A stretch of DNA of 64,000 bases from an uncultured archaeon (GTDB taxonomy: Archaea; Iainarchaeota; Iainarchaeia; Iainarchaeales; GCA-2688035): assembly GCA_964569815.1 (NCBI GenBank), contig CAZMUN010000002.1:2701-66700 (forward strand), in the 5' to 3' direction. The notes below the pieces were generated by a model, which did not search any database, was not told where the DNA came from, and saw only the letters and a list, made by a program, of their open reading frames with translations. Below are positions 18,603 through 41,807 of this stretch, in pieces (within the stretch, counting starts at the first letter, position 1; each line of letters starts with the position of its first letter). Position numbers and translations under genes: made by a program.

Positions 18603-20336
18603 ATGGCGGACGAAGACTACTTGGCAGACCTTATAAAAAAGGTAAAACAGGCAAAAAAAGAGCAGGCTAAAGCAAAGGCAACTGCACCAAAAAAAGCCGA
18701 AATGCCTGCAGGAATTCCAAAAGAAGTCCAGGAAATAGACCTCAAAAAAATGCCTGAAAAGCAGTCAGAGCCACAGGCAGCCCCCGAAAAGCCAAAACAG
18801 GAACAGGCTGCAAAGGCAATGCCTGAGCCAGAAGAGGAAGAAGAAGCGCCAAGAAAAAGCACTGTTGAAAAAGAGCTGGAAGTGGCAAGCAAAAAAATAG
18901 AAATTGAAAGCTACGGCAACGTAAGAATAATGCAGGTTCCAGGAAAACCGCTTCCCTTTTACATGGTGCCTGTTGCAAGGCCGACAAAGCAGGAAAAAGC
19001 CGTAATAAACACCATAAAAGAGGCAGCCACAAGGCTTATCGCAATCTCGCCATACAGAATTCGCGACCCAACGCAAAGAAGAACGGTTTACAAACAACGC
19101 ATAATGGAAATCCTGAAAAACAGCCCAGAGCTGCACATTCCTGAGAGAAGGTTTGGGTTTTACGCCGAGTCCGTGATAAGGGAAATGGTGGGCTATGGCA
19201 TAATAGACCCGCTTGTAATGGACGACACGCTTGAAGAAATCATGGTGATTGGCGCAAAAAAGCCAGTTTACCTCTTTCACAGAAAATACGAAATGATGTC
19301 AAGCAACATTGAATTCTATTCAGACAAGGAAATAATCGACCTCATAAACAGGATTGCCCGCGTGATAGGAAGGCGCGTAGACATAAGCTCGCCGTTGCTT
19401 GATGCAAGGCTTCCGGACGGAAGCCGTGTCAATGCAACGATTCCGCCTGCCTCTGTAGAGGGGGCAACCCTTACCATAAGAAAATTCAGAAAAGACCCTT
19501 ACACAATAGTAGACCTTTTGAACAACGAAACACTTACAAGCGAAGTTGCCGCATTTTTGTGGCTGTGCGTTGACGGCCTGGGAGCAAAGCCAGCAAACAT
19601 ACTAATTGCAGGAGGAACAGGATCAGGAAAAACCACGACCTTAAACTGCCTGGCTTCCTTTATTCCAGATACTGAACGGGTTATATCAATCGAAGACACG
19701 GCTGAACTGTCACTGCCATTAAAGCACTGGGTGAGAATGGAGGCAAGGCCTCCAGGCCTAGAGGGAAAAGGCGAACTCACATTAGATGTTTTAACCAAAA
19801 ACAGCTTGAGGATGCGCCCAGACAGGATACTTGTGGGAGAGGTAAGGCACGACGAGGCATTCACGCTTTTCACTGCATTGAACACCGGCCACGACGGCTG
19901 TTTAGGGACGATTCACGCAAACTCGCCGCAGGAAACAATTGTTCGTGTTACAAGCCCACCAATGAACGTTCCGGAAGTAATGCTCTCAGGCCTGGACCTG
20001 ATTCTGATAGAGCACAAGCTCCATGACAGGAGAAAGGGAACGATAAGGCGCTTGACAGAGATAGCGGAAGTAAGCGGAGTTCTCTTGAGAAAAGCACAAA
20101 CCCAAACCATTTTTGCAAGGGACCCTGCAAAAGACACGATTGAGAGAACAAACGTTCCCATTAAATACTTTAAAATACTACAAGATTTCACAGGAATGAA
20201 GCAAAAAGACATAGAGGAAAACTGGAAAAAAAGGCAAGTTTTCCTCGAAAAAATGAGGCAAAAGGGCATAAGAAGCCTGGAAGAAGTGAAAAAAGAAACC
20301 CAAAAATTTTACATGGAAGAGAACCAAAATGCCTGA
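18603..20336 (+). CDS. Type IV pilus/archaellum assembly ATPase (FlaI/ArlI, VirB11/GspE superfamily) with a low-complexity K/E/P-rich N-terminal extension
   Basis: Walker A ILIAGGTGSGKTTTLN. Asp box and RIS...GEVR motifs. About 100 aa of lysine-, glutamate-, alanine- and proline-rich sequence at the N-terminus. Confidence 0.85.
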   Translation: MADEDYLADLIKKVKQAKKEQAKAKATAPKKAEMPAGIPKEVQEIDLKKMPEKQSEPQAAPEKPKQEQAAKAMPEPEEEEEAPRKSTVEKELEVASKKIEIESYGNVRIMQVPGKPLPFYMVPVARPTKQEKAVINTIKEAATRLIAISPYRIRDPTQRRTVYKQRIMEILKNSPELHIPERRFGFYAESVIREMVGYGIIDPLVMDDTLEEIMVIGAKKPVYLFHRKYEMMSSNIEFYSDKEIIDLINRIARVIGRRVDISSPLLDARLPDGSRVNATIPPASVEGATLTIRKFRKDPYTIVDLLNNETLTSEVAAFLWLCVDGLGAKPANILIAGGTGSGKTTTLNCLASFIPDTERVISIEDTAELSLPLKHWVRMEARPPGLEGKGELTLDVLTKNSLRMRPDRILVGEVRHDEAFTLFTALNTGHDGCLGTIHANSPQETIVRVTSPPMNVPEVMLSGLDLILIEHKLHDRRKGTIRRLTEIAEVSGVLLRKAQTQTIFARDPAKDTIERTNVPIKYFKILQDFTGMKQKDIEENWKKRQVFLEKMRQKGIRSLEEVKKETQKFYMEENQNA

Positions 20337-21450
20337 AAAAAAGCCAAGCAAGAAAGAAGAGCCCACAGAAATAGACATGGAAAAGGTCGAAAGAATAGTA
20401 AAAAGAATGCGGGACAAGTACCGCGACGAAGGAATGGAATTCGAGGAAGTGGGCGGAACCCTGAAAGAGCTTCGCGGCCTGATAGCAGAGGGAATGGCAG
20501 CCAAAATAGAAATACAAACCATTGACGAGCTAAGAGAAGTGAAAAGCAAGCTGGTAAAATTCCTGGTCAGCGTATACTTAAAGCTTGGCGCAGTCCTAAA
20601 GCCAATAGCAAAAGCAATGGGAAAATTCCCAGAAATGGAAATGCTCTCATTCTACTTGTACAGCGCAAACATGCACTACAGCAGCAAGCAATACATTGCC
20701 TTGACAGTTGCAAGCGCAACCCTTGCATTCCTTGTAGCAATGCTTACATCTGCCGCTGTCTTCACATACCTCAACATAGAGATGGCAACACGAGTAATAG
20801 CAATACTCGTAATATCGGCCCTGACCTTTGTAATAACCTCAGTTGCAATACTAATGGTTCCAAAGCAGAAAGCCATAGCAAGGGGAAACGCAGTAAGCAT
20901 AGAGCTGCCGTTTGCATTAAGGCACATGGCCACAGAGCTAAGGGCCGGAATAGGGCTTTACAGGACCATTCAAGCAGTGGCATCAGCAGACTACCACGAG
21001 CTAAGCGAAGAGTTTGCCCGCGTCATAACAGAGGTAGAGGAAGGCACAGACACACAGGACGCGTTAAGGCACCTTGCCTTGAGAACACAAAGCCGCGCAC
21101 TGAGAACAGCAATAATCCAAATAATCCGCGCACTAAAAACAGGCGGCAACTTAAGCGAAAGCATGAACGACATAGCAGAAGACGTTTCGTTTGAAATGAG
21201 GATGGCTGTCCGCGAATTCGGGCAAAGAATGAACTTCTTTGGAGTGGTCTTTATCTTTGGAGCAATAGTCATGCCCGTAATGATAACCATTTTAGGGGCA
21301 ATAAGAAACAGCCCCATAAAGGCAAGTATGTCAAGCTTTGAAATGCTTCCATTGACACTGCCGGTAATGGCAGCAATATACCTGGCAATAATGCCGTTCG
21401 TTCTGATATTGTTTTTGTTCTACATTAAAACAGCTCAACCAAGGGTGTAA
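20329..21450 (+). CDS. T2SSF-domain membrane platform protein (FlaJ/TadC-like), part 1
   Basis: ELPFALRHMATELRAGIGLYRTIQAVA is a T2SSF signature. Polytopic. Confidence 0.75.
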   Translation: MPEKKPSKKEEPTEIDMEKVERIVKRMRDKYRDEGMEFEEVGGTLKELRGLIAEGMAAKIEIQTIDELREVKSKLVKFLVSVYLKLGAVLKPIAKAMGKFPEMEMLSFYLYSANMHYSSKQYIALTVASATLAFLVAMLTSAAVFTYLNIEMATRVIAILVISALTFVITSVAILMVPKQKAIARGNAVSIELPFALRHMATELRAGIGLYRTIQAVASADYHELSEEFARVITEVEEGTDTQDALRHLALRTQSRALRTAIIQIIRALKTGGNLSESMNDIAEDVSFEMRMAVREFGQRMNFFGVVFIFGAIVMPVMITILGAIRNSPIKASMSSFEMLPLTLPVMAAIYLAIMPFVLILFLFYIKTAQPRV

Positions 21451-21452
21451 AA

Positions 21453-22397
21453 ATGGCAGAAGAAAAAAAGAAAGGATTGGAATTTTTTGAGAATTACAAA
21501 AAAATGCTGAAAAGCATTAAATTCAAGAGCCCTGCAGAAGCCTGGGTCCTGATATCAACAGTGCTTGCCCTGGCAGGCGCAATCGCAAGCTTTTCAGCCA
21601 TAGCAATTTTGCAGCTTCCTGTTTCACCGCTTGTTTCAACAGTCATATTCCTCGTGATTTTAGATGTTTTGCTTGGATACCCTTACCTTCGCGCGCTAAG
21701 AAGAATAAACGCAATAGAGGAAGCGCTTCCAGATGCCCTGAAACAGCTTGCAGACACCCTGAAGGCAGGCGGAACATATGAATACGCTTTAAGGGAGCTC
21801 TCCACATCAGAATACGGGCCGTTAAGCCACGAAATGGCAGAAGTGCTGAGAAAAATGGAGGAAGGCGAAAACCTGGAAGACAGCCTTAACAGCTTTTCAA
21901 GAAGCGTTGACTCAATCCTGGTAAAAAGAACCATTTCAATAATAAACGACGCAATAAAAGCAGGCGCAGGCTTGGCAGACGTGCTTGAAGAAATATCTGA
22001 TGACGTAAGGGCAATGCACCGCATTGCAAAGGAAAGAATTGCTGGGACGATGCTTCAAGTCATTTTCATTGTAGCAGCAGGCTCAATGGTTGCACCGGTC
22101 ATACTTGGAATGGTCACAACAGTTGTACAGCTTTTAATTGAAACAAGCGCAAGCATAGTAACAGAAAAGGCCCAGATAGTGGAAGCCATTGCAGCAAGAG
22201 ACTTCATCGTAATCCTGATGCAGCTTTACCTAATGCTTGAAGTGATTGCATCAGGTGCCATGATTGCAATGACCCGCGAGGGAAAAATAAGCAAAAGCCT
22301 TATATACATCCCAATGCTTTTATTATTGGCATTTGTTTGCTACTATACGGCAATATTTGTTTCAGGATTAATGATTGGCGGAATCGGAGCAAGATAA
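21453..22397 (+). CDS. T2SSF-domain membrane platform protein (FlaJ/TadB-like), part 2
   Basis: EALPDALKQLADTLKAGGTYEYALRELS is a T2SSF signature. Starts 3 bp after the previous gene, so the platform is split into two genes. Confidence 0.75.
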   Translation: MAEEKKKGLEFFENYKKMLKSIKFKSPAEAWVLISTVLALAGAIASFSAIAILQLPVSPLVSTVIFLVILDVLLGYPYLRALRRINAIEEALPDALKQLADTLKAGGTYEYALRELSTSEYGPLSHEMAEVLRKMEEGENLEDSLNSFSRSVDSILVKRTISIINDAIKAGAGLADVLEEISDDVRAMHRIAKERIAGTMLQVIFIVAAGSMVAPVILGMVTTVVQLLIETSASIVTEKAQIVEAIAARDFIVILMQLYLMLEVIASGAMIAMTREGKISKSLIYIPMLLLLAFVCYYTAIFVSGLMIGGIGAR

Positions 22398-22400
22398 AAA

Positions 22401-22664
22401 ATGGTTTGGAAAGAAAGAAAAGCCCAGGGAAGCATTGAATTGCTTGTGCTGATAGCAGGAGCAGTAATAGTTGTTGCCATTGTGGGCGTAATGCTGAAAA
22501 ACACTGCAACAACTGCTGCAGAACAGGCAGCATGCAAGACCCACAACAGCTGTGAAACATGCGTGGCAGACAGCCAGTGCAAGGCCCTTGACATTATGGG
22601 CGCGGAAATAGCCGACAGCGCATCCTGCACAGCACAGGCATATGAAACATGCGTGGCAACTTAA
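22401..22664 (+). CDS. Small cysteine-rich type IV pilin-like protein (class III signal peptide)
   Basis: RKA|QGSIELLVLIAGAVIVVAIVGV, with KA at -2/-1 and Glu at +5. C-terminus CKTHNSCETCVADSQCKAL...C...C (6 Cys). Confidence 0.7.
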   Translation: MVWKERKAQGSIELLVLIAGAVIVVAIVGVMLKNTATTAAEQAACKTHNSCETCVADSQCKALDIMGAEIADSASCTAQAYETCVAT

Positions 22665-22733
22665 AGCAAAAGAAAACGTTTATAAAGCAGAAAAAGGTAA
22701 TAAAATACATTTAAAAAAAAAGCAAAAACTTTA

Positions 22734-23009
22734 ATGGAGGTCAAAAAAATGGATGTAAGAGGACAAGGTGCATTAGAATACCTTTTGCTGATCGGAGGAG
22801 CAGTGCTGGTAGCAGCAATCGTCATAGCACTGATCACAGGCATACCAGGAACCACACCAGATCCATCAACCCAGGCAAAGTGTGCAACGTACTCGACATG
22901 CGCATTATGTGTGGCTGACGCAGATTGTGCGGCACTTGGATCAGATGGAGCAGAGTATGACGCCTGCGCAGGAATACCTGGATTCGATGGCTGTATAGTC
23001 GACTCATAA
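22734..23009 (+). CDS. Small cysteine-rich type IV pilin-like protein, paralog of the 22401 gene
   Basis: RG|QGALEYLLLIGGAVLVAAIVIAL, then CATYSTCALCVADADCAAL...C...C. Alternative start at 22749. Confidence 0.7.
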   Translation: MEVKKMDVRGQGALEYLLLIGGAVLVAAIVIALITGIPGTTPDPSTQAKCATYSTCALCVADADCAALGSDGAEYDACAGIPGFDGCIVDS

Positions 23010-23027
23010 ATATAGCAAGGTTTTCGC

Positions 23028-23201
23028 ATGGATAACAGGGCACAGGTTAGCATAGAGTACCTGCTGCTTGCATTGTTTGGAATAATCCTGGCAATGGTTG
23101 CGGCAGTGCTGGTTGACGGCATTAGTTCAGTGGCAAGAACAGCACAGGGCAGAATACTTGATTACCGTCATCAGACAATTGCATCCTTATTAGAGACCTA
23201 A
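23028..23201 (+). CDS. 57-aa minor pilin-like protein (class III signal peptide), absent from the ORF track
   Basis: Hand translation MDNRA|QVSIEYLLLALFGIILAMVAAVLVDGISSVARTAQGRILDYRHQTIASLLET. Same RA|QxSIE pattern as its neighbours. Confidence 0.6.
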   Translation: MDNRAQVSIEYLLLALFGIILAMVAAVLVDGISSVARTAQGRILDYRHQTIASLLET

Positions 23202-23222
23202 AAAAGGGGTTTTTGTTTTACC

Positions 23223-24341
23223 ATGGCCCCTTTCCTATTCTTCTTCTTTGTTTCACTGCTTGGCTTAGCCTACGGCACATACACAGACTTCAAGGAAAGA
23301 ATCATACACGACTGGGTAACGTATGGCATGGTCGCTTTGGGGATAGCAGGCCATGCAGTGCTTGCATTCCTTTACCAGGACCCAATGGTTTTTGTAACGG
23401 CTTTGCTCGTAACCACGACAACGTTTTTGGCGGCATACGGCCTATACAAGATAGGCGTCTGGGCAGGCGGAGACGTAAAGCTTTTTGCAGGCCTTGCAGC
23501 CCTGAACCCGGTGAACCCGGCAATTCTGGCAAGGCTTGGCCTGATAACCGAGCCCTTGATTCAGCCAATTGATGCCCCTATTTTTCCGCTGACACTTTTT
23601 ATCTTCAGCCTCTTTGCAATGCTGCCATATGGGGCAATTCTCGCCGCCTCAAGGCTTAGGGCAAACAAGGCTGAAAAGAAGAAGTTCAAGGAAGAGGGCA
23701 AAAAAAGGCTGCTGCAGGCAGTGGAAGCAAGCGCAATAGTTGTGGGCCTGAGCCAAGCGATGGCATTTCTCCAAATAAGCCAATGGCTTGTTCTGCCATT
23801 GCTTGTTTTGTCCGGCCTCGTGCCAAAAAAGCCAAGGCTTGTAATCTCAGCCGTTTTGCTGTTCTACGCGCTGTTTGAAAACGCGGAACTGGCAGCACAG
23901 CAGTTTTTATTTATCGCGGCCTTCTTTTTCGGGCTATACCTTTTGTTCAAGCTATACCATTTGTCCAAAACACTTATGAGAAAGCCTGTTGCAATGGAAA
24001 AGCTTGAGGAAGGAATGATCTCAGCGCAAACCCTTGTAAAAAGCGGGCCAAACGTGAAAGTGGTGCCCGAAATTGGAATAAAAAAGTTAATTAACTACCT
24101 CGCCCTAAATAGGTCCAAAAAGGCAGTGCAATACCTTAAGCCAAAAGGCCGGGTTGTTGTTTCAAACAAGTCGGCAGGAGGCCTAACAGAAGAGGAAATA
24201 AGGGAACTCCAAAAACTTGCGCAGGAGAAAAAAACGCCCTCGGTTTTATGGGTAAAGGAAAGCGCTCCCTTTGTTCCCGCTGTGCTGATTGCATTCCTTG
24301 CACTGAACTTGGTTGGAGACATAATATGGGTTTTGGTTTAA
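23223..24341 (+). CDS. Prepilin/preflagellin peptidase (A24 family, PibD/FlaK-like) with a C-terminal extension
   Basis: Catalytic Asp motifs YTDFKERIIHD and GGDVKLFAGL in a polytopic membrane protein. Confidence 0.8.
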   Translation: MAPFLFFFFVSLLGLAYGTYTDFKERIIHDWVTYGMVALGIAGHAVLAFLYQDPMVFVTALLVTTTTFLAAYGLYKIGVWAGGDVKLFAGLAALNPVNPAILARLGLITEPLIQPIDAPIFPLTLFIFSLFAMLPYGAILAASRLRANKAEKKKFKEEGKKRLLQAVEASAIVVGLSQAMAFLQISQWLVLPLLVLSGLVPKKPRLVISAVLLFYALFENAELAAQQFLFIAAFFFGLYLLFKLYHLSKTLMRKPVAMEKLEEGMISAQTLVKSGPNVKVVPEIGIKKLINYLALNRSKKAVQYLKPKGRVVVSNKSAGGLTEEEIRELQKLAQEKKTPSVLWVKESAPFVPAVLIAFLALNLVGDIIWVLV

Positions 24342-24841
24342 ACAGAAAGGGAAGCATTAGCATTGAATTCATTCTGCTGATTGGCGTGGCCCTGATTTAC
24401 ATAAACGGGGTGGTATGGCCTATTGCAAACAGCAGCAGCGCTGCAACAGCAGACGTCAAAGCTGTTGCAGACACAAAGATTGCAGCCATGAAGCTTGGGA
24501 ATGCAATAAACCAGGCAGCCATTTCATCAGGAGAAATGAAGAAAACAGTCCAGCTCATGGTTCCAAAAAACTCGAAAATAGCCTGTTCGACAACAAGTGC
24601 AAGCTTGGTTTACATGGCGTATGTGGATTACATGGGAGGCTGGAACCCTGATGAAATCAATTGCACGGTTTACCCTAGTGCGCCGGCAGACCCAGAAGGG
24701 TTTGAATGCCAATCCCAAATAGGCCTTATCCAGGCGCCGGACAACTGCATTGCCGGAGCAACGATTTCGGGACCGATTTTGCGCGACATTGTTGTAAAAA
24801 AGAACGACGCTGGAGATATTTCTGTTGAGTGGGCCACATGA
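24326..24841 (+). CDS. Pilin-like protein (class III signal peptide), 171 aa
   Basis: MGFGLNRKG|SISIEFILLIGVALIYI. Start at the ATG at 24326 overlaps the peptidase end by 16 nt. The track ORF from 24248 is an out-of-context extension. Confidence 0.65.
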   Translation: MGFGLNRKGSISIEFILLIGVALIYINGVVWPIANSSSAATADVKAVADTKIAAMKLGNAINQAAISSGEMKKTVQLMVPKNSKIACSTTSASLVYMAYVDYMGGWNPDEINCTVYPSAPADPEGFECQSQIGLIQAPDNCIAGATISGPILRDIVVKKNDAGDISVEWAT

Positions 24842-25203
24842 AGCAAAAAGGCCAGGTAAGCATTGAAGCACTTATTCTTACAGCCGTAGTAATTTTGATG
24901 AGCATATCTGTTTTCGGCTACTACATCCAGATAAAGGATTCTACAACAGGAATGGAGGCCGCAAAAATCGAGGCCCTGCGGCAAATAAGCCAAGCAGGGC
25001 AAAAAGCCACTCTTGAAAGAATTGAATACAAATACGACCCCGGCCCTGGAATTGGCATAAGGTTCTGCTTTTTTTACGAAGCGGAAGCAGGCTTTGCATT
25101 TGACCAAAGCAAGCTCAAGAGCGAAATAGCTTCCCTGACCGCTTTTAACTCAACCGGCATAGAAATCCAGGAAAACCCTGCGGCAGCAAGCAACTGCGAG
25201 TAA
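24838..25203 (+). CDS. Pilin-like protein (class III signal peptide), about 122 aa
   Basis: MKQKG|QVSIEALILTAVVILMSI. ATG at 24838 overlaps the previous stop. Confidence 0.65.
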   Translation: MKQKGQVSIEALILTAVVILMSISVFGYYIQIKDSTTGMEAAKIEALRQISQAGQKATLERIEYKYDPGPGIGIRFCFFYEAEAGFAFDQSKLKSEIASLTAFNSTGIEIQENPAAASNCE

Positions 25204-25262
25204 TTCGTTGAAAAGCGAATTCGGGAAACGGTTTTTTTAACAGTCCTGAAAGCAACTGGTTT

Positions 25263-25625
25263 ATGCTAAGGCAGGAAACAATTGCACAGGCTTCACTGGC
25301 TGTGGCAATGGCAGGTCTTTTGGCGCTGTGGTTTCTTGCAACCATGTTTGAAGCAAAAGAAACAAAGATATCCGAAATAAGCGAAGAAATGCTTGAACAA
25401 AAAGTGAAGCTAAACGCACGGGTTTTAAGCAGAAAGCAAAACAAGGAAACGGTTTTTTTTGAATTGTATGATGGAACAGGAACCATAAAAGCGGTTGCCT
25501 TTAATGCAAGCAGCCCTGAAATGGAACGGCTTCAGAAAAACAGCTGCGCCGAGTTTTTGGGAAAGGTCCAAACCTACAAAGGCGAGCTTGAACTGGTTTT
25601 ACAAGGAGCCGAGCAATGGCACTAG
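25263..25625 (+). CDS. Membrane-anchored OB-fold domain protein
   Basis: N-terminal TM helix, then VFFELYDGTGTIKAVAFN...GKVQTYKGELELVL, an OB-fold/tRNA_anti-like pattern. Confidence 0.45.
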   Translation: MLRQETIAQASLAVAMAGLLALWFLATMFEAKETKISEISEEMLEQKVKLNARVLSRKQNKETVFFELYDGTGTIKAVAFNASSPEMERLQKNSCAEFLGKVQTYKGELELVLQGAEQWH

Positions 25626-26803
25626 AAATCATTGGCTTTGCCATTGCAGGCTGCTTTTTGGGAATCTTGTCAGGCATTGTGCCAGGGCTTCATGTGAACA
25701 CAATCGCCTTGCTTGCTTTGGCCATGCCAAAAACCAACAGCTTGGGCCTTGTTGTCTTAATTGCTTCAATGAGCGTGGTCCACACATTTGTTGACTTTCT
25801 TCCCAGCGTATTGCTTGGCGCTCCAAGCAATGACACTTTTTTGGCTGCCCTGCCAGGGCACAGGCTTTTGATGAAGGGAAAAGGCCTTCTTGCAGTAAAG
25901 CTTACCATTGCAGGCGGCCTTTTTTCGGGTTTGGGGGCAATAGCTCTCGGGCCTGTTTTTCTTGCAGTGATTGAAAAAAGCCATGAAATGGTTTCAGCAG
26001 GCATTCCATTCTTTCTCTGCCTTGTTTTGGTTGCAATGGCCTTAAGCGGAAAAAGGTTTTCCAACACAATGATAATGGCTTTAAGCGCAGCTCTTGGCCT
26101 GATTGCACTGCAAGAGCTGCCGGTAAAGCAGCCGTTGTTTTGCCTTGCAACAGGCTTTTTTGGGGCAAGCGCCCTGCTGGATTCCCTGTTTAAAAACCCT
26201 GTTCTGCCAAAGCAAGGCTTACACAAACTCAATGCAAAGAAAGGGCCTGTTTTCAAAAACTCTGTTATTGCGGTTTTGGGCGGAAGCCTTGTTTCACTGA
26301 TGCCAGGCATTGGGGCAAGCCAGGCAGGCTTTCTTGCAAGAAAGGCCTTGGGAAAAATTCCTGTATCCGAATACCTTGTTCTCTTGGGAGGCATAAACAC
26401 TGCAACAATGATTTTGTCTTTTTTTGTGCTTTTTTCATGGGGAAAGACAAGGACTGGAAGCGCTGCAGCAATAGGGCAACTTCTTCCATTCAGGCAAGAA
26501 GAGCTTTTGGTTGTCACAGCGGCCTGTGTAATGGCCCTGGGCTTTGGCGCAATTGCAGCAGACCTATTGTCAAAAAAAATGGCCAAGGTTTTTGCCAAAA
26601 TAAATTACAGGAAAGCAAACGCAGTAGTGCTTTGCTTCATAACAGGAATGGTTTTTGCTTTTTCAGGGCTTTTAGGGCTTTTGGTTTACGCAACAGCCGC
26701 ATTCACAGGCCTTGCTGCAATAAACCTTGGCGTAAGAAGAAGCAACACAATGTCTTTCCTAATAGTGCCAACAATGGCCAACTATGCCGCAGGATTGATT
26801 TAA
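25616..26803 (+). CDS. TctA-family (DUF112) polytopic membrane protein
   Basis: GIVPGLHVNTIALLAL resembles the DUF112 signature. About 10 TM segments. Confidence 0.5.
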   Translation: MALEIIGFAIAGCFLGILSGIVPGLHVNTIALLALAMPKTNSLGLVVLIASMSVVHTFVDFLPSVLLGAPSNDTFLAALPGHRLLMKGKGLLAVKLTIAGGLFSGLGAIALGPVFLAVIEKSHEMVSAGIPFFLCLVLVAMALSGKRFSNTMIMALSAALGLIALQELPVKQPLFCLATGFFGASALLDSLFKNPVLPKQGLHKLNAKKGPVFKNSVIAVLGGSLVSLMPGIGASQAGFLARKALGKIPVSEYLVLLGGINTATMILSFFVLFSWGKTRTGSAAAIGQLLPFRQEELLVVTAACVMALGFGAIAADLLSKKMAKVFAKINYRKANAVVLCFITGMVFAFSGLLGLLVYATAAFTGLAAINLGVRRSNTMSFLIVPTMANYAAGLI

Positions 26804-26829
26804 AAAGCAATTTGCAACAGCAAAATGGT

Positions 26830-27201
26830 ATGGTGAGAATAAAGCAGGGAACGCTGGAAGCAGTGCTGCTTGCGGCAAAAAACACCTACCCGAACGAGTT
26901 CCTGGCATTGCTTTCAAGCAAAAAAAAGGGGTCAAAGGTAATAGACGAATATGTTTTGCTGCCATCAACATACGGAAGCACTTTCAGCAGCATAAGGCTT
27001 GACTTAATGCCCTACACAGGCAAAGGCCTTGGAAGCATTCACTCGCATCCAAGCCCAAACCCAAGGCCAAGCAAAGGCGATTTGGCTGCATTCAGGGCAA
27101 TGGGAGAAATACATTTAATAACTGCCTACCCTTTCTCTTTTGAAAGCACCCGTGCTTTCGACAAGTTTGGAAAAGCTTTGGAACTGGAAGTGGTTGAATG
27201 A
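26830..27201 (+). CDS. JAMM/MPN+ metalloprotease (small archaeal JAMM1-type)
   Basis: E...HSHPSPNPRPSKGD is the canonical JAMM motif (E, HxH, x7, S, x2, D). The true start ATG at 26830 was found by hand. The track's 254-aa ORF (26437..) includes a spurious extension overlapping the DUF112 gene. Confidence 0.75.
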   Translation: MVRIKQGTLEAVLLAAKNTYPNEFLALLSSKKKGSKVIDEYVLLPSTYGSTFSSIRLDLMPYTGKGLGSIHSHPSPNPRPSKGDLAAFRAMGEIHLITAYPFSFESTRAFDKFGKALELEVVE

Positions 27202-28709
27202 AAAAGGTTGTCCTAGTCATAAGAGACGGCTGGGGTTTTAATCCAAAACAAGAAAAAAACGCTATTTTTGCAGCAAACACCGAAAACACCGACCGGTTGA
27301 TGAAAGAATATCCAAACACCTTGCTTGAATGCGCAGGGGAGGCAGTCGGCCTTCCAAAAGGATACCAAGGAAACAGTGAAGTCGGACATATGACCATTGG
27401 CTCCGGCCGCGTCATATTTCAGCCGATGGTTAGAATAAACAAGGCCATCGAATCAGGCGAGTTTTTTAAAAACAGGGCCTTCCTGCAGGCGATTGAAAAT
27501 TGCAGGAAACACAATAGCGCCCTGCATCTCATTGGACTGCTTCAAAGCGAAGGGGTCCACAGCCATGAAAACCACCTTTTTGCACTTCTAGAATTATGCA
27601 AAAAGAAAAACTTTGACAAGGTTTTAGTGCATGCAGTAATGGACGGGCGTGACGCCCCGCCCAAAGACGGAATAAAGCATTTGAAAAAGCTAAAGCAAAA
27701 AATGGAAAGTGTTGGCTTGGGAAAGATTGCAACACTTTCAGGACGATACTACACTATGGACCGCGACAAAAGATGGGACCGCACCAAAAAGGCATATGAC
27801 TGCATTGTTTTGGGAAAGGCTGAAAGCTTTGAAGATGCGGAAAAAAAGCTTGTTGAATGCTATGGAAAAAAGGAAACAGACGAGTTTTTGACACCGAGAA
27901 GAGCAGAATGGTATCAGGGCGTTAAGGAAAAAGACAGCATAATTTTTTTCAACTTCAGGACAGACAGGCCAAGGCAGCTAACCCAAGCCATTGTTGAGAA
28001 AATGTTTGCAGGCTGGAGGCGCAAGCCGCTTGATGTCTTTTTTGCGGCTATGACTGAATACTATAAGCCAATGAAAGCTATTGCGGCATTCAAAGACCAG
28101 AATATTGAAAACCTGCTTGGCGAAGTCATAAGCAAGGCCGGACTAAAGCAGCTGCGTATTTCGGAAACAGAAAAATATGCCCACGTAACCTTTTTCTTCA
28201 ACGGCCAGAAAGAGCAGCCAAGCAAAGGCGAGGACAGGATAATGGTGCCAAGCCCAAAGGTTGCAACCTATGACAGGAAACCAGAAATGAGCGCATTTGA
28301 GGTTACAGAAAAGCTTGTGAAAGAGATTGAAAGCGAAAAACACGAATTTATTGTGGTAAACATTGTAAACGGCGACCTTGTAGGCCACACGGGAATATGG
28401 AACGCATGCCTCAAAGCAGCAGAAACAGTTGACAAATGCGTTGCCAGAATAACAGAAGCAGGCCTCAAACACGACTACAGCTTGCTTATTTTTGCCGACC
28501 ACGGCAACCTTGAAGACCAGTCAAAGCAATGGGGGACATCCCACACACTAAACCCGGTTCCCATAGTTATTGTATCAGAAGACGAAAAGCTGAAAAAAAC
28601 TGTTTTGAAACAAGGCTTTGGCCTGAAAGACATAGCCCCAACAGTTTTGGGCATAATGGGAATAAAAAAGCCAAAAGAAATGACCGGAACAGGTTTGCTT
28701 CAAGGCTAA
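27198..28709 (+). CDS. gpmI: 2,3-bisphosphoglycerate-independent phosphoglycerate mutase (iPGM)
   Basis: VVLVIRDGWG, NSEVGHMTIGSGRV, ADHGN motifs. Size and architecture match iPGM. Confidence 0.85.
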   Translation: MKKVVLVIRDGWGFNPKQEKNAIFAANTENTDRLMKEYPNTLLECAGEAVGLPKGYQGNSEVGHMTIGSGRVIFQPMVRINKAIESGEFFKNRAFLQAIENCRKHNSALHLIGLLQSEGVHSHENHLFALLELCKKKNFDKVLVHAVMDGRDAPPKDGIKHLKKLKQKMESVGLGKIATLSGRYYTMDRDKRWDRTKKAYDCIVLGKAESFEDAEKKLVECYGKKETDEFLTPRRAEWYQGVKEKDSIIFFNFRTDRPRQLTQAIVEKMFAGWRRKPLDVFFAAMTEYYKPMKAIAAFKDQNIENLLGEVISKAGLKQLRISETEKYAHVTFFFNGQKEQPSKGEDRIMVPSPKVATYDRKPEMSAFEVTEKLVKEIESEKHEFIVVNIVNGDLVGHTGIWNACLKAAETVDKCVARITEAGLKHDYSLLIFADHGNLEDQSKQWGTSHTLNPVPIVIVSEDEKLKKTVLKQGFGLKDIAPTVLGIMGIKKPKEMTGTGLLQG

Positions 28710-28742
28710 TTCTTAAATACCAAAAAGCGGTTAAATAATGCA

Positions 28743-29159
28743 ATGAAAGCCCAGATTTCCCTAGATTTGATGCTAACAATAGCCGTTGCCCTGGTTGCAG
28801 TAGGCAGTGCAGCAGCCTTAGGCCAAAACATTCTGGAAATGCAGTCAGATGCCTCTGTGAAAGCACAGCTTGAAAGCATTGGAACAGGCCTTGCGGAAAT
28901 AATCAGTGTTTCCGCGGTTTTGGGAGACGCAGACGACGCAAAAGCGGAATACGAGATTCCCGCTCTGCATGTGCCAGGAGAGAAAAACCCGCAAACCTGC
29001 AGCATAAGCCTTGCAGGAACAAACTTAACCTTAAGCTATGAGCTAGCAGACCTTGAAACAGGGGCAAGCAGAACCATAACTGTTTCAAAAAAAGTAATAG
29101 ACCCCGGAATGAACATAACAATGGGAAACTGTGGGGAAACAATGGTGATAAAAACATGA
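28743..29159 (+). CDS. Pilin/archaellin-like protein (class III signal peptide)
   Basis: MKA|QISLDLMLTIAVALVAVG, with acidic residue at +5. Confidence 0.6.
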   Translation: MKAQISLDLMLTIAVALVAVGSAAALGQNILEMQSDASVKAQLESIGTGLAEIISVSAVLGDADDAKAEYEIPALHVPGEKNPQTCSISLAGTNLTLSYELADLETGASRTITVSKKVIDPGMNITMGNCGETMVIKT

Positions 29160-29602
29160 ATAAAAAAGGCCAGCTTTTTTCACTAGACTTTTTGATTTCG
29201 CTTATAGCAATAACAGCAGCAGTTGGCCTGATGATTCACTCAATTGAAACAACTACCTACAACCAAAAAGAATTCAACCAAAGGAACGAAATGGAGTCCG
29301 TGGCAGAGCTTGCAACAGCAATACTTGCAGCAGACAGCAGGATTGCATGCACGGATGGAAGAGGGCAAGCAATTGTGAACTGCATTGACTCCGGCAAAAA
29401 CCGCTCCCATGCACTGGATTTTGTTACTGGCAGCGGCTACCATTACAGCCTGCAGGACAATTCTGGAACCATAGATGAGTCGTCAGCAGTTTACACAAGC
29501 CAGGATTTTTACGAAGTGAAGAGAACGGTTTTCATAGATGGCACGGATTCGGCAAACGAAGCAGAGCTGGCTTTGAAGGTGTGGAAATGGGAAAAGGCAT
29601 GA
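29156..29602 (+). CDS. Pilin-like protein (class III signal peptide)
   Basis: MNKKG|QLFSLDFLISLIAITAAVGLMI. Overlaps the previous stop. Confidence 0.6.
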   Translation: MNKKGQLFSLDFLISLIAITAAVGLMIHSIETTTYNQKEFNQRNEMESVAELATAILAADSRIACTDGRGQAIVNCIDSGKNRSHALDFVTGSGYHYSLQDNSGTIDESSAVYTSQDFYEVKRTVFIDGTDSANEAELALKVWKWEKA

Positions 29603-29925
29603 TTTTCACAATGGATGCCGCGCTTGCATTGGTGGTTGTAATGCTGGTTGCGGCAACTTTGCCGGCCCAGGTCCAGGCAAACCTGGAAGAAGAAAACTTG
29701 AATCAAAAGCTTCACCAAAGGGCCCTAGACAGGGGAATTTCCGCGCTTTACAAAGAAGATGTTTCAGGCTACAGCGGATCAAACGAGGAAGAAATAGGTG
29801 CAACAGACCGCTTTGGGGAATGCGTGGAAGTGCACGGGCTTATGGAAGACCCAACAACAGGCACTGAAAACCTTTATGGCCCCGATGTGCCAGAAAAAGG
29901 GGTTTTGTGCGAGGGAGCAACATGA
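29581..29925 (+). CDS. Pilin-like protein (class III signal peptide)
   Basis: GKG|MIFTMDAALALVVVMLVAA. Alternative starts at 29587 and 29599. Confidence 0.5.
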   Translation: MEMGKGMIFTMDAALALVVVMLVAATLPAQVQANLEEENLNQKLHQRALDRGISALYKEDVSGYSGSNEEEIGATDRFGECVEVHGLMEDPTTGTENLYGPDVPEKGVLCEGAT

Positions 29926-30467
29926 ACAGCAACTTTACTAAAAGGGGGTTTTCCAAAGGGTTTTACACCGGGACAATTGCATTGACTGCAGTCATAATAA
30001 TTAGCGTGGTTTCCTTCAGTGCCATTTCTTCTATAGAGGCAGGCGAGGCAAAAAGCCAGGCAAGGGCAATTTTGGATGTAAGGTATGACTTCCAAAAGGC
30101 TTCGGTTATTGTTTCAAAAACCGTTTCTGATGCACTTGCAGACGCAAGCTTTGACGGCACAAGTTGCGGCTATGAAAAGAATGCTGCAGGAACAAATCTT
30201 CAGAACTATTTTGAAAACAACCATGTTCTTGCAACAACCTATGAAAACTGCACTGCAGAAATAAAGCAGCTACGCCAAGAAAATAGGCAGGTGGAAGTTG
30301 AGATTTACTGCACCAAAAACGCTGAAGGGGTTTTAGCAGAGTATAAAACCAGGGTTGAGTATAATAAGGCGGTTAGCGCAGTAGACAGCGGAACAGACTG
30401 CACTGTAACAGTCACAGACGATGACACTGGACAGGTCGAAGTCCAGGAAACCGAAACATATGTCTAA
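29907..30467 (+). CDS. Pilin-like protein (class III signal peptide), 186 aa
   Basis: KRGFSKG|FYTGTIALTAVIIISVV, followed by a Cys-containing globular region. Confidence 0.5.
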   Translation: MRGSNMNSNFTKRGFSKGFYTGTIALTAVIIISVVSFSAISSIEAGEAKSQARAILDVRYDFQKASVIVSKTVSDALADASFDGTSCGYEKNAAGTNLQNYFENNHVLATTYENCTAEIKQLRQENRQVEVEIYCTKNAEGVLAEYKTRVEYNKAVSAVDSGTDCTVTVTDDDTGQVEVQETETYV

Positions 30468-30509
30468 ACCCCTTTTTTATTAACCTTATTGAACCAACTT
30501 ATTTTTACC

Positions 30510-39728: not shown

Positions 39729-40270
39729 ACAAAAACAAAAGGCTTTTTTTTGCAGTGAAACTGCCCCAAAGCATGAAACAGGAAATCGCTGAAAAGGTTC
39801 TTCCGCTAATTGAGAAAGAAAAATGGAGAAAAGTGCTTCCTGAAAACCTGCATATAACAATCCGTTTTTTGGGGCACCTGCCAAAAGAAGCTGTTAACGG
39901 GCTGGAGCAAAAAACCTGCGCTCTGCAGGAAATGGAGGGCTTTGAAGCCGAACTGAACTGCGCAGGGCATTTCAAAAACAAGGTCTTGTGGCTCGGCATA
40001 GGAAAAGGAACAGAAGAATTCAACCTGCTCCACAAAAAGCTGGAAGAATCCCTTGGAACAAGCAACCAAAGGTTTCACGCACACATAACCCTCGCCAGAA
40101 ACAAGGGCGCAAAAAGCAAAGAAGTGAAAGAGCTTGTGGAAAAAATCAGGGCCGCTTTCGAAAGCAAGAAACTTCAGGTTGAAAGCATTGACCTTATGGA
40201 AAGCTTTCTTCAAAAATCGGGGCCACGCTACGAAAAAGTTTTTTCAGTGCAGTTTAAAGGTCCTGAGTGA
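39725..40270 (+). CDS. thpR: RNA 2',3'-cyclic phosphodiesterase / 2'-5' RNA ligase (2H family, ThpR/LigT)
   Basis: Two HxT/SxR motifs, HITIRF and HAHITLAR. Confidence 0.75.
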   Translation: MNKNKRLFFAVKLPQSMKQEIAEKVLPLIEKEKWRKVLPENLHITIRFLGHLPKEAVNGLEQKTCALQEMEGFEAELNCAGHFKNKVLWLGIGKGTEEFNLLHKKLEESLGTSNQRFHAHITLARNKGAKSKEVKELVEKIRAAFESKKLQVESIDLMESFLQKSGPRYEKVFSVQFKGPE

Positions 40271-41807
40271 TCTTTTTTAAAACAGACTCCTGGTCGAAGT
40301 AGTATTGCTGAACCAGCTGCGAAACCGCTTCCCTGCTTCTTATGCCTTTGGAAAGCATGAATTCAAGAATCCTTTTTCGGATGTATATTTCGCGTTTCAG
40401 CTCGTTCTTTGAAAGGCCTGCGCTTGAAGCAAGCTGTTCAACCAGCTCACTTGGAACCTTTGTTCTTTCAGTGCGGCCTGTTTTTTCATTGAATTCATAG
40501 ATGTTGTTCAGCAAAACGGTTTCATCCATTCGCCCAACTTCAGTAATCTGCTTTATTGTCCTAACCATCCCTTTTCTTTTGTCGTAGTGTCTTTCCATTA
40601 CGATAACCATGTCAAGCAAGGGAATCATTTGCTCAGGAACGTTCATGGGAGCGCTCTTAAGCCTTATCATCATCTCGCGGGCGGAATTGCTGTGCAAAGT
40701 CCCCAAAATGCCCCGATGCCCTGTATCCATTGCCACAAAAAGGGTTTCAGCTTCCTGGCTTCTTACTTCACCCACAATTATTCTGTCAGGGCGCATCCTC
40801 AAAGTGTTTTTTAACAAGTCATCCATTGAAACAGCCAAAATGTCTTTCATCTTTGGCTTGGATTCCATCTGAATCCAGTTTTCCCTTACACCCAAATCCA
40901 GCTCTATTGTGTCCTCTATTGAAATTATCCTCTCATCAAAGGGAATGAAGTCAGCCAAAACATTCATCAAAGTGGTTTTTCCTGAACCGGTTCCACCGGT
41001 AATTATTGTATTCATGGGGTGAAGTTTCATTCCCTCAACCATGGTCCAAAGAAATGCTGCAACTTCGGTGTCAAGGGTATTGTTTGCAATAAAGTCAATT
41101 GCTGAAAGAGGTATTTTGCTGAACTTCCTGATGGTAAGCGTATGGCCAAAAGGGCTCACGTAATTGAAGGTTGCGTTAGCCCTGCTTCCATCAGGCAGCC
41201 TTGCATCCAAAAGAGGGTGTGCTTCATTGAACTGCTTGGAAACCGTTGCAGCAATCCTCTTTAGGAGGCTGAACATGCCGCTTTTTTCATCCACCTCAAT
41301 ATTTGTTTTGCAGTTGCCAAAATGCCTGTGAAAAACAAAAACATTCCTTTCAAAGCCATTGACCATTATTTCTTCCAGCTGAGAATCGGTCATAAGAGGG
41401 CTTATGGCGCCATAGCCAATGCTGTGGTCAAGCACATGCCTTATGAAATCGTTCTTGTGCTCAATGCCAAGCTTTTCGGTCACAGGAAGAAGGTTTAAGT
41501 GAAGAACCTCGAACTGCCTCGCGCTTGGAAGCATTTGGGTAAGGCTTTCAACATCAATTGTCTGGATTACGCTGTTCCTGAACTGTTCCACAATGGACTT
41601 GCTTTTCGAGCCAAGCTCGGCATGCAGTGCATTCAGCGAAGCAGACCTTGTAATGACCCTTACAAGAAGGTCCGCCTTTCTTTTTTCCTCCTTTGAAAGC
41701 CCTGTGGAAAGCACTTCATAGAGATTGTAAGGAAACCCGCTGTAAATTTTTGCCTTGGGCTTGCTTTCAAGCAATTTTCCTTTCACAGGCTTAAGGTTCT
41801 CATCCAT
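40254..41807 (-). CDS. Second FlaI/VirB11-family secretion/pilus ATPase (solo, no adjacent platform gene)
   Basis: Walker A IITGGTGSGKTTLMNVL, Asp box, GEVR. Paralog of the 18603 ATPase with a different N-terminal domain. Confidence 0.8.
   Translation of the reverse strand: MDENLKPVKGKLLESKPKAKIYSGFPYNLYEVLSTGLSKEEKRKADLLVRVITRSASLNALHAELGSKSKSIVEQFRNSVIQTIDVESLTQMLPSARQFEVLHLNLLPVTEKLGIEHKNDFIRHVLDHSIGYGAISPLMTDSQLEEIMVNGFERNVFVFHRHFGNCKTNIEVDEKSGMFSLLKRIAATVSKQFNEAHPLLDARLPDGSRANATFNYVSPFGHTLTIRKFSKIPLSAIDFIANNTLDTEVAAFLWTMVEGMKLHPMNTIITGGTGSGKTTLMNVLADFIPFDERIISIEDTIELDLGVRENWIQMESKPKMKDILAVSMDDLLKNTLRMRPDRIIVGEVRSQEAETLFVAMDTGHRGILGTLHSNSAREMMIRLKSAPMNVPEQMIPLLDMVIVMERHYDKRKGMVRTIKQITEVGRMDETVLLNNIYEFNEKTGRTERTKVPSELVEQLASSAGLSKNELKREIYIRKRILEFMLSKGIRSREAVSQLVQQYYFDQESVLKKITQDL

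Follow-up and report, generated by a model that had tools for sequence, protein, structure and literature searches.

Four conserved pilin-like genes beside an Epd-like pilus locus in Iainarchaeota: a candidate archaeal minor-pilin complex

The minor-pilin complexes that prime type IV filaments and occupy their tips are well defined in bacteria and not in archaea, where the proteins termed 'minor pilins' have mostly been assigned from their signal peptides alone. Among the bacterial examples, the Com pilus carries four consecutive, interacting minor pilins that are all required as one complex and are encoded in a single operon, the last gene of which encodes the essential ComGG, lacking the glutamate at position 5 (E5) (PMC8727766), and similar minor-pilin sets are the tip-initiation complexes GspH-I-J-K of the type II secretion system (T2SS) and PilH-I-J-K (FimU-PilV-W-X) of the type IVa pilus. 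Within the Tad pilus, CpaL/TadG consists of a pilin-like N-terminal domain, a dispensable middle region of ~470 amino acids, and an essential C-terminal beta-strand (10.64898/2026.02.14.705861). On the archaeal side, the clade 1 or System 1 (Epd-like) architecture is known from methanogens, Thermococcales, and some members of DPANN (PMC4858521; 10.64898/2026.04.22.720090), at least five minor pilins have been predicted for clade 1 loci in general terms (PMC4858521), and 'dark-matter' pilins have already been noted in DPANN (PMC6393860). This article concerns a block of four consecutive genes, here designated A, B, C, and D, in a 64,000-nucleotide stretch of DNA (hereafter the window; GenBank assembly GCA_964569815.1, contig CAZMUN010000002.1, positions 2,701 to 66,700, forward strand) from an uncultured member of Iainarchaeota, a lineage of the DPANN group (Nanobdellati).

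It is confirmed from sequence that A-D encode four different type IV pilin-like proteins with prepilin-type N-termini, and these proteins probably make up the minor-pilin (tip or priming) complex of the adjacent Epd-like pilus. A tip set is preferred to a shaft because the block comprises four different single-copy families in a fixed order with coupled translation, because the product of the last gene, D, contains no acidic residue in the relevant region, and because B can display a VWA adhesin module. The block is laid out as follows, with an arrow (↓) marking the predicted cleavage site.

28706-28719, + strand: BRE/TATA-like (transcription factor B recognition element/TATA box) element CTAATTCTTAAATA, starting at the gpmI stop codon, 24-37 nucleotides before the ATG of A
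28743-29159, + strand: gene A, 138 amino acids, leader MKA↓QISLD, two conserved cysteines
29156-29602, + strand: gene B, 148 amino acids, leader MNKKG↓QLFSLDF
29587-29925, + strand: gene C, ATG start, 112 amino acids, the smallest of the four, leader MGKG↓MIFTMDA, two conserved cysteines
29922-30467, + strand: gene D, ATG start, 181 amino acids, leader MNSNFTKRGFSKG↓FYTG, four conserved cysteines
30473-30478, + strand: oligo-T run directly after the D stop codon

All four open reading frames (ORFs) reported in the first-pass annotation of this DNA, with class III-type starts and overlaps between successive genes at their stops, are present on the + strand where it had placed them; the prepilin-type N-termini were borne out, and the overlaps take the form of 4-nucleotide ATGA junctions at A/B and C/D and of a 16-nucleotide overlap at B/C. 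The lengths of 138 and 148 amino acids originally given for A and B stand, whereas those of 114 and 186 for C and D are mechanical maxima counted from GTG codons at 29581 and 29907 and were refined to 112 and 181, the latter being the length of NCBI protein P0005. The start of C is placed at ATG 29587 because all homologues begin with M-x-[KR]-G; ATG 29599, which would give an ATGA overlap, was ruled out, since the start shared by the homologues lies three to four codons upstream of it. At least 10 orthologous loci carry the element CTAATTCTTAAATA, in the same or nearly identical form, equally far from A. TATA-like octamers lie at similar upstream distances from other leading genes. The possibility that this 14-mer is a general genomic repeat was ruled out by its single copy in the window with up to two mismatches allowed. 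It is regarded as a putative promoter of the A-D operon, and the oligo-T run, with T-rich tracts also found 3' of D in several orthologous loci, as a possible archaeal terminator; the block thereby looks like an autonomous transcription unit.

The order A-B-C-D, together with the same N-terminal motifs and start/stop overlaps, is kept in ~15 independent loci, and is therefore conserved far beyond chance. Such a run of three to four different, contiguous, and overlapping pilin-like genes in fixed order, one of them (D) lacking the conserved acidic residue, is the architecture by which a tip complex would be recognised. The block is nearly always located between a phosphoglycerate mutase gene and ABCE1. 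Identity to the window is 46-76% for the housekeeping proteins (ABCE1/gpmI) and only 23-59% for A-D, which therefore form a conserved block that evolves fast, as surface proteins do. One locus (L002, 9509-15425) contains the whole unit tandemly duplicated (A'-B'-C'-D'), an CTAATTCTTAAATA-like motif included.

The prepilin-type character of the N-termini was assessed by a motif scan, which covered every possible start of the 365 six-frame ORFs in the window and required [KR][GA] within 30 amino acids of the start, followed by a 22-residue hydrophobic stretch that contained no more than one D or E and whose first 20 residues were free of K, R, and P. Eleven matches were obtained, nine of which are + strand genes within 22401-30467 (those starting at 22401, 22749, 23028, 24326, and 24838, plus A-D), so the clustering is not due to chance, and the earlier count of at least nine pilin-like genes is right; the remaining two are an internal start within the TctA gene and one shadow ORF. 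Across the families, G or A at position -1 and K or R (rarely N) at -2 were found in 15 of 15 A, 11 of 11 B, 13 of 13 C, and 42 of 43 D sequences. Leaders are mostly 3-5 amino acids long, as in the neighbouring class III pilins, and ~20 hydrophobic residues directly follow the predicted cleavage site in A-D (hydropathy scan; for A and C, by sequence only). Beyond these shared features, each family has its own signature. In the A family, -1 is G or A and -2 is K or R, and all 15 members have Q at +1 and D or E at +5; in the B family, -1 is G and -2 is K, and all 11 members have Q at +1 and an acidic residue, invariably D, at +6. The C family combines G at -1 and K or R at -2 with a hydrophobic residue (I, F, or M) at +1 and an acidic residue at +6 (13 of 13). 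The D family has G at -1 (42 of 43) and K or R at -2, a variable +1, and an aromatic residue at +2 (40 of 43); none of its 43 members has an acidic residue within +1 to +12, whereas every other pilin-like gene of the locus encodes one.

These N-termini bear directly on the explanation that A-D are ordinary Sec-dependent secreted or anchored proteins whose likeness to pilins arose by chance, an outcome that the first-pass annotation had named as the one that would overturn its proposal. The AAALG↓Q stretch in A can indeed be read as a signal-peptidase I site, but the hydrophobic stretch comprises at least 20 residues, contains a buried acidic residue that is conserved, and runs into a helix of 50-64 residues; nine genes of this type are grouped with those for a prepilin peptidase and for assembly, and D is predicted to adopt a pilin fold. 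This explanation is already largely refuted and is considered extremely improbable, and the pilin-like nature of the four proteins is upheld by their prepilin-type N-termini and the predicted fold of D.

Profile searches place A-D outside the described families. No significant family was assigned to the four proteins in Pfam or NCBIfam, and no archaellin, TadE, or Gsp minor pilin match was obtained there. The discrimination between archaellins and pilins by hidden Markov models, which had been proposed as a check, was carried out and yielded only sub-threshold matches to curated pilin models, namely PF04021 (Class_IIIsignal) in 1 of 15 A members (E 0.014) and PF07790 (Pilin_N) in 2 of 53 D members (E 0.031). 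Archaellin models gave no match at E up to 1 or 0.1 for A-D of the window (Pfam, NCBIfam), nor in a Pfam scan of further family members (15 A, 13 C, and 53 D), where the B family was represented by the window protein, and no archaellum accessory genes were found nearby, so the archaellum-like fibre contemplated at first is not upheld. A search of PDB sequences with the A, B, C, and D profiles returned no match. Comparison among the profiles in local mode with hhalign linked A to B (95.8% over 98 columns), B to C (95.1% over the N-terminal 29 columns), and A to PilX, the product of an upstream gene that itself approaches PF04021 (91.4% over the N-terminal 33 columns), and revealed no sequence relation of D to A, B, or C. 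Additionally, two B members carry the Joint Genome Institute label UPF0333. No sequence homology to bacterial minor pilin families was detected in Pfam, NCBIfam, or PDB sequences, and the likeness to them is structural and architectural only.

Structure prediction, another of the proposed checks, was run on B and D and gave a reliable model for D alone. The D model is a confident alpha-beta pilin fold, in which a long helix (residues 13-76, high confidence) packs on an antiparallel sheet, while the AlphaFold2 model of B, built from a four-sequence alignment, is unreliable (predicted local distance difference test score 45.5) and places a helix at residues 10-59 followed by strands. The predicted fold of D matches pilins and pseudopilins, is GspK-like, and does not resemble PilN/O or FlaF/G; a Foldseek comparison of the model with the PDB gave no match at E below 0.001. 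As the only subunit without an acidic residue, and with its GspK-like fold, D is a candidate apex subunit. The leader of the window D protein, MNSNFTKRGFSKG (29922-29960), is unusually long at 13 amino acids, compared with 4-5 in 37 of 43 family members, and a second [KR]-G motif within it (KRG↓F) is a possible alternative processing site.

The fold of D also helps to judge whether A-D could be uncleaved bitopic accessory or alignment proteins of the pilus or of the OB/TctA machinery described below, comparable to PilN/PilO or FlaF/FlaG. Such a role would suit the failure of every pilin model to recognise A-D, the D family with its conserved aromatic residue at +2 and neither Q at +1 nor an acidic residue, and a locus (L017) in which the block is tied more closely to OB-TctA-JAB than to the pilus core. 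It is hard to reconcile with G or A at -1 and K or R at -2 directly before the hydrophobic helix in ~80 sequences, with leaders of 3-5 residues like those of the neighbouring class III pilins, with a D fold that fits pilins and pseudopilins and not PilN/O or FlaF/G, and with the profile link between A and PilX; we consider it improbable.

Protein B appears in short and long forms, and its domain architecture identifies it as a modular carrier of a VWA adhesin module in some relatives. The long forms, of 849 amino acids (the second copy in L002) and 707 amino acids (the only copy in L014/L009), contain a VWA domain (E 1.7e-11 and 1.2e-15, respectively), accompanied in L014 by an LVIVD repeat. 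The insert of 560-700 amino acids separates the conserved N-terminal half from a strand at the extreme C-terminus, [LI]x[LIV][RK]VW[KG], which is present in both long forms and in 62 of 73 short forms, the window B carrying it as LxVWK. The VWA-containing insert of the second L002 copy is rich in cysteine. The long forms thus have the CpaL/TadG layout with VWA in the middle, and the short forms resemble an engineered 'delta-middle' CpaL, although B has no Pfam TadE/Tad match.

The pilus to which these proteins would belong is encoded upstream of the block, where the gene order toward A-D is threonyl-tRNA synthetase, T2SSE, two T2SSF genes, three Flp-like pilins, A24 peptidase, pilX, pilY, OB, TctA, JAB, and gpmI. 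The pilus genes, together with a second ATPase gene located downstream, are as follows.

18603-22397, + strand: assembly ATPase (T2SSE) and two separate platform genes (T2SSF), from Pfam, NCBIfam, and synteny (Pfam T2SSE 1.1e-44; T2SSF 8.2e-21 and 7e-18)
22401-22664, + strand: Flp-like pilin with a KAQGSIELL N-terminus
22749-23009, + strand: Flp-like pilin with a GQGALEY N-terminus
23028-23201, + strand: Flp-like pilin of 57 amino acids, MDNRA↓QVSIEYLLL, from the motif scan
23223-24341, + strand: A24 prepilin peptidase with an Arc_PepC domain (PF01478 4.6e-12, PF06819 1.8e-10)
24326-24841, + strand: pilX, N-terminus KG↓[SQ]xSIE
24838-25203, + strand: pilY, N-terminus KG↓[SQ]xSIE
40254-41807, - strand: second FlaI/TadA-type secretion ATPase with a PilB3_C domain, 45% identical to the ATPase at 18603

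With an ATPase, two platform genes, a peptidase, and small major pilins, this locus has the composition of an Epd/System 1 (clade 1) locus, and the division of its platform between two T2SSF genes follows the Epd and not the FlaJ pattern. Two of the three Flp-like pilins (57-87 amino acids) exceed the PF04021 cut-off, and the three are likely the major (shaft) subunits, as in Epd and Tad pili. The pilin gene at 23028-23201, between the 22749 pilin and the peptidase, falls below a 60-amino-acid ORF threshold and is easily missed. The two longer Flp-like pilins of the window (86-87 amino acids, 22401-23009) end in cysteine-rich tails, such as CKTHNSCETCVADSQCKAL, whereas relatives at other loci are tail-less and 51-59 amino acids long; these tails suggest disulfide-stabilised decorations on the shaft subunit. 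The A24 peptidase gene, 4.4 kb upstream of A-D, is classed as EppA/FlaK-like, with scores against the NCBIfam EppA and FlaK equivalog models far below their cut-offs.

Among described systems, the locus resembles the Epd pilus of Methanococcus maripaludis (minor pilins EpdA-C), with which it shares two platform genes, a dedicated EppA-like peptidase ending in an archaeal domain, small major pilins without a globular domain, several essential Q+1 minor pilins, and adhesin-like partners (PMC4858521; 10.64898/2026.04.22.720090). It differs in that A-D fall below the PF04021 (DUF361/UPF0333) threshold and appear to be restricted to Iainarchaeota and relatives. The Tad system (tip proteins TadE/F/G = CpaJ/K/L) has machinery of the same lineage, in which an ATPase is combined with two separate platform genes of the TadB/TadC type and with Flp-like pilins bearing a G↓xxxxEY-type motif, but has three pilin-like accessory genes compared with six here (pilX, pilY, and A-D). 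Of the bacterial minor-pilin sets, it is especially ComGD-ComGE-ComGF-ComGG that the block recalls. Like these, A-D are four pilin-like genes in a row downstream of ATPase, platform, and major pilin genes; D and ComGG are both encoded last and lack the acidic residue, which A, B, and C possess, and both systems are associated with DNA uptake, in the present case only through the OB/TctA neighbourhood. Unlike the Com genes, A-D show no detectable sequence similarity to that set, reside in an archaeon with an EppA/FlaK-type peptidase and Flp-like shaft pilins, and apparently form a transcription unit of their own, 3.5 kb away from the core operon.

This separation raises the question of whether A-D build a second, distinct filament or pseudopilus, one of them serving as its major subunit, through the same platform or the ATPase at 40254-41807. 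The own promoter-like element and the position of the block apart from the core operon are compatible with this, as are locus L017, in which the block is not beside a pilus operon, the ATPase paralogue (45% identity, PilB3_C) conserved ~10 kb downstream, and the speculation in a survey of archaeal type IV filaments that a second pilus might be built from additional System 1 pilins (10.64898/2026.04.22.720090). A distinct fibre, as the first-pass annotation envisaged, is nevertheless unlikely: the four families are single-copy, coupled, and in fixed order, none of the subunits is amplified or of an abundant type, D has no acidic residue, and the bulky VWA inserts of B are incompatible with a shaft subunit, all of which is the signature of minor pilins; furthermore, no second platform set (T2SSF) occurs in the window and there is no archaellin signature. 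Service by the second ATPase, suggested at the same time, is not borne out either, as the window contains no platform gene belonging to this 45% identical paralogue and nothing links it to A-D. Its gene stands alone between LigT and the CCA-adding enzyme, and the same arrangement occurs in L001.

Several observations weigh against the minor-pilin interpretation. None of the PF04021, PF07790, TadE, and GspH-K models is significant on any A-D member, and D is the only one of the four with a reliable structure model. B and C carry their acidic residue at +6 instead of +5, and, to our knowledge, the importance of E5 for archaeal pilins is not established. The block is set apart from the pilus operon by four genes (3.5 kb), and in L017 no pilus operon lies within the 3.2 kb of sequence available upstream of the OB gene; in favour of the association, linkage to Epd-like machinery holds in eight of the nine loci with enough upstream sequence. 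Gene structure, conservation, motifs, the predicted D fold, and the domain architecture of B are observed here, whereas cleavage, complex formation, tip location, and biological role are inferred.

With these points taken into account, the following mechanism is proposed for the minor-pilin complex. After membrane insertion, leaders of 3-13 residues would be removed at the conserved site ([KR]-[GA]↓), probably by the EppA/FlaK-like A24 peptidase. The mature proteins might then join through their hydrophobic N-terminal helices into an approximately 1:1:1:1 complex that would prime and cap an Epd/Tad-like ('System 1') pilus with a shaft of the Flp-like pilins encoded at 22401-23201. D would be placed at the apex, and B would in some relatives present an adhesin module, made of VWA (plus a beta-propeller repeat) and flanked by its pilin domain and its C-terminal strand. 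The pilus would probably function in attachment to a surface or host, and may also function in DNA capture and uptake, because it is conserved beside an OB-fold/TctA pair.

This pair belongs to a group of four genes located between pilY and A.

25263-25625, + strand: membrane-anchored OB-fold protein (PF01336 4.4e-12), one transmembrane segment at residues 6-24
25616-26803, + strand: TctA-like membrane protein (PF01970 1.8e-36), ~12 hydrophobic segments
26830-27201, + strand: JAB/JAMM protein (Pfam), apparently active from its motif (HSHPSPNPRPSKGD)
27198-28709, + strand: gpmI, cofactor-independent phosphoglycerate mutase, between JAB and A

The OB and TctA genes are adjacent and overlapping, and, in a comparison restricted to architecture, the pair corresponds to MMJJ_13020 and MMJJ_13030 of M. 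maripaludis, a single-transmembrane OB-fold protein encoded next to a TctA-like protein of ~11 transmembrane segments, which are essential for natural transformation and have been proposed as an archaeal DNA transporter; the Epd pilus genes are likewise required for transformation in that organism (PMC10133366). In M. maripaludis, OB/TctA has not been reported beside pilus genes, whereas here it lies between the pilus operon and A-D. Our literature search found no paper on the linkage of OB/TctA to pilus genes in DPANN. An interpretation of OB-TctA-JAB as plain transporter neighbours (PMC5898192) was revised in light of the transformation genetics (PMC10133366).

OB-TctA-JAB is found just upstream of A-D in every locus with enough sequence, L017 included, with a phosphoglycerate mutase gene between it and the block; the exception is L008, in which ~1.2 kb without a recognised gene lies between JAB and A and no gpmI homologue was detected there. 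In L014 (1844-2533) and L009, the gpmI position is occupied by a gene of the cofactor-dependent phosphoglycerate mutase (dPGM) type (MTYKIVLVRHGQSEWN), which, judged from sequence, is an in-situ non-orthologous displacement.

Taken as a whole, the region of 18.6-30.5 kb suggests a DNA-uptake/adhesion supercluster. A more far-reaching interpretation, put forward as a tentative and rather doubtful possibility, is that it constitutes a compact archaeal 'competence island', in which an Epd-like pilus and an OB-fold/TctA candidate DNA channel would be combined with A-D as the first recognisable archaeal counterpart of the bacterial tip-initiation complex, D being its E5-less apex and B a CpaL/TadG-like carrier whose C-terminal strand would act by complementation.

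The distribution of the families was examined through profile searches. An exhaustive search of representatives with the D profile yielded 58 clusters with E-values no higher than 0.001. Of these, three are long multi-domain proteins matching only a short stretch of D, and the other 55 are 76-281 amino acids long, mostly 165-195; the same profile retrieved three proteins from a 90%-clustered database. The B profile gave 73 clusters, in which the named homologues are labelled 'Candidatus Diapherotrites archaeon', and the B alignment, searched against GTDB genomes, retrieved loci of 'Candidatus Iainarchaeum archaeon' and a few contigs in other metagenome-assembled genomes (MAGs). Three of the loci (L003, L005, and L007; JAFCCG01, JAFCCH01, and JAFCBY01) show the Iainarchaeota gene order within MAGs of Chloroflexi, Thaumarchaeota, and Falkowbacteria, placements that are probably due to binning contamination.

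A-D are previously unannotated families of an already known kind of system, and the finding is lifted above the routine by a GspK-like D without an acidic residue, a CpaL-like B, and the linkage to OB/TctA. The block offers a small, conserved, and delimited four-protein candidate for an archaeal priming complex, with one confident GspK-like model and one member that occurs with and without a VWA module, and the four families, for which Pfam and NCBIfam hold no model, could enter annotation resources. Bacterial Tad pili are believed to descend from the archaeal lineage of machines (Epd, System 1) that includes this locus, and the neighbouring OB-fold/TctA pair is the only candidate archaeal DNA-uptake channel so far; together they provide a concrete set of genes with which partner attachment or DNA scavenging by DPANN archaea can be studied. 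If the competence-island interpretation were true, a four-subunit priming complex, and possibly beta-strand 'licensing', would be older than the divergence of archaeal Epd from bacterial Tad/Com/T2SS filaments, and genome-reduced DPANN cells would use the A-D complex to capture DNA or hosts.

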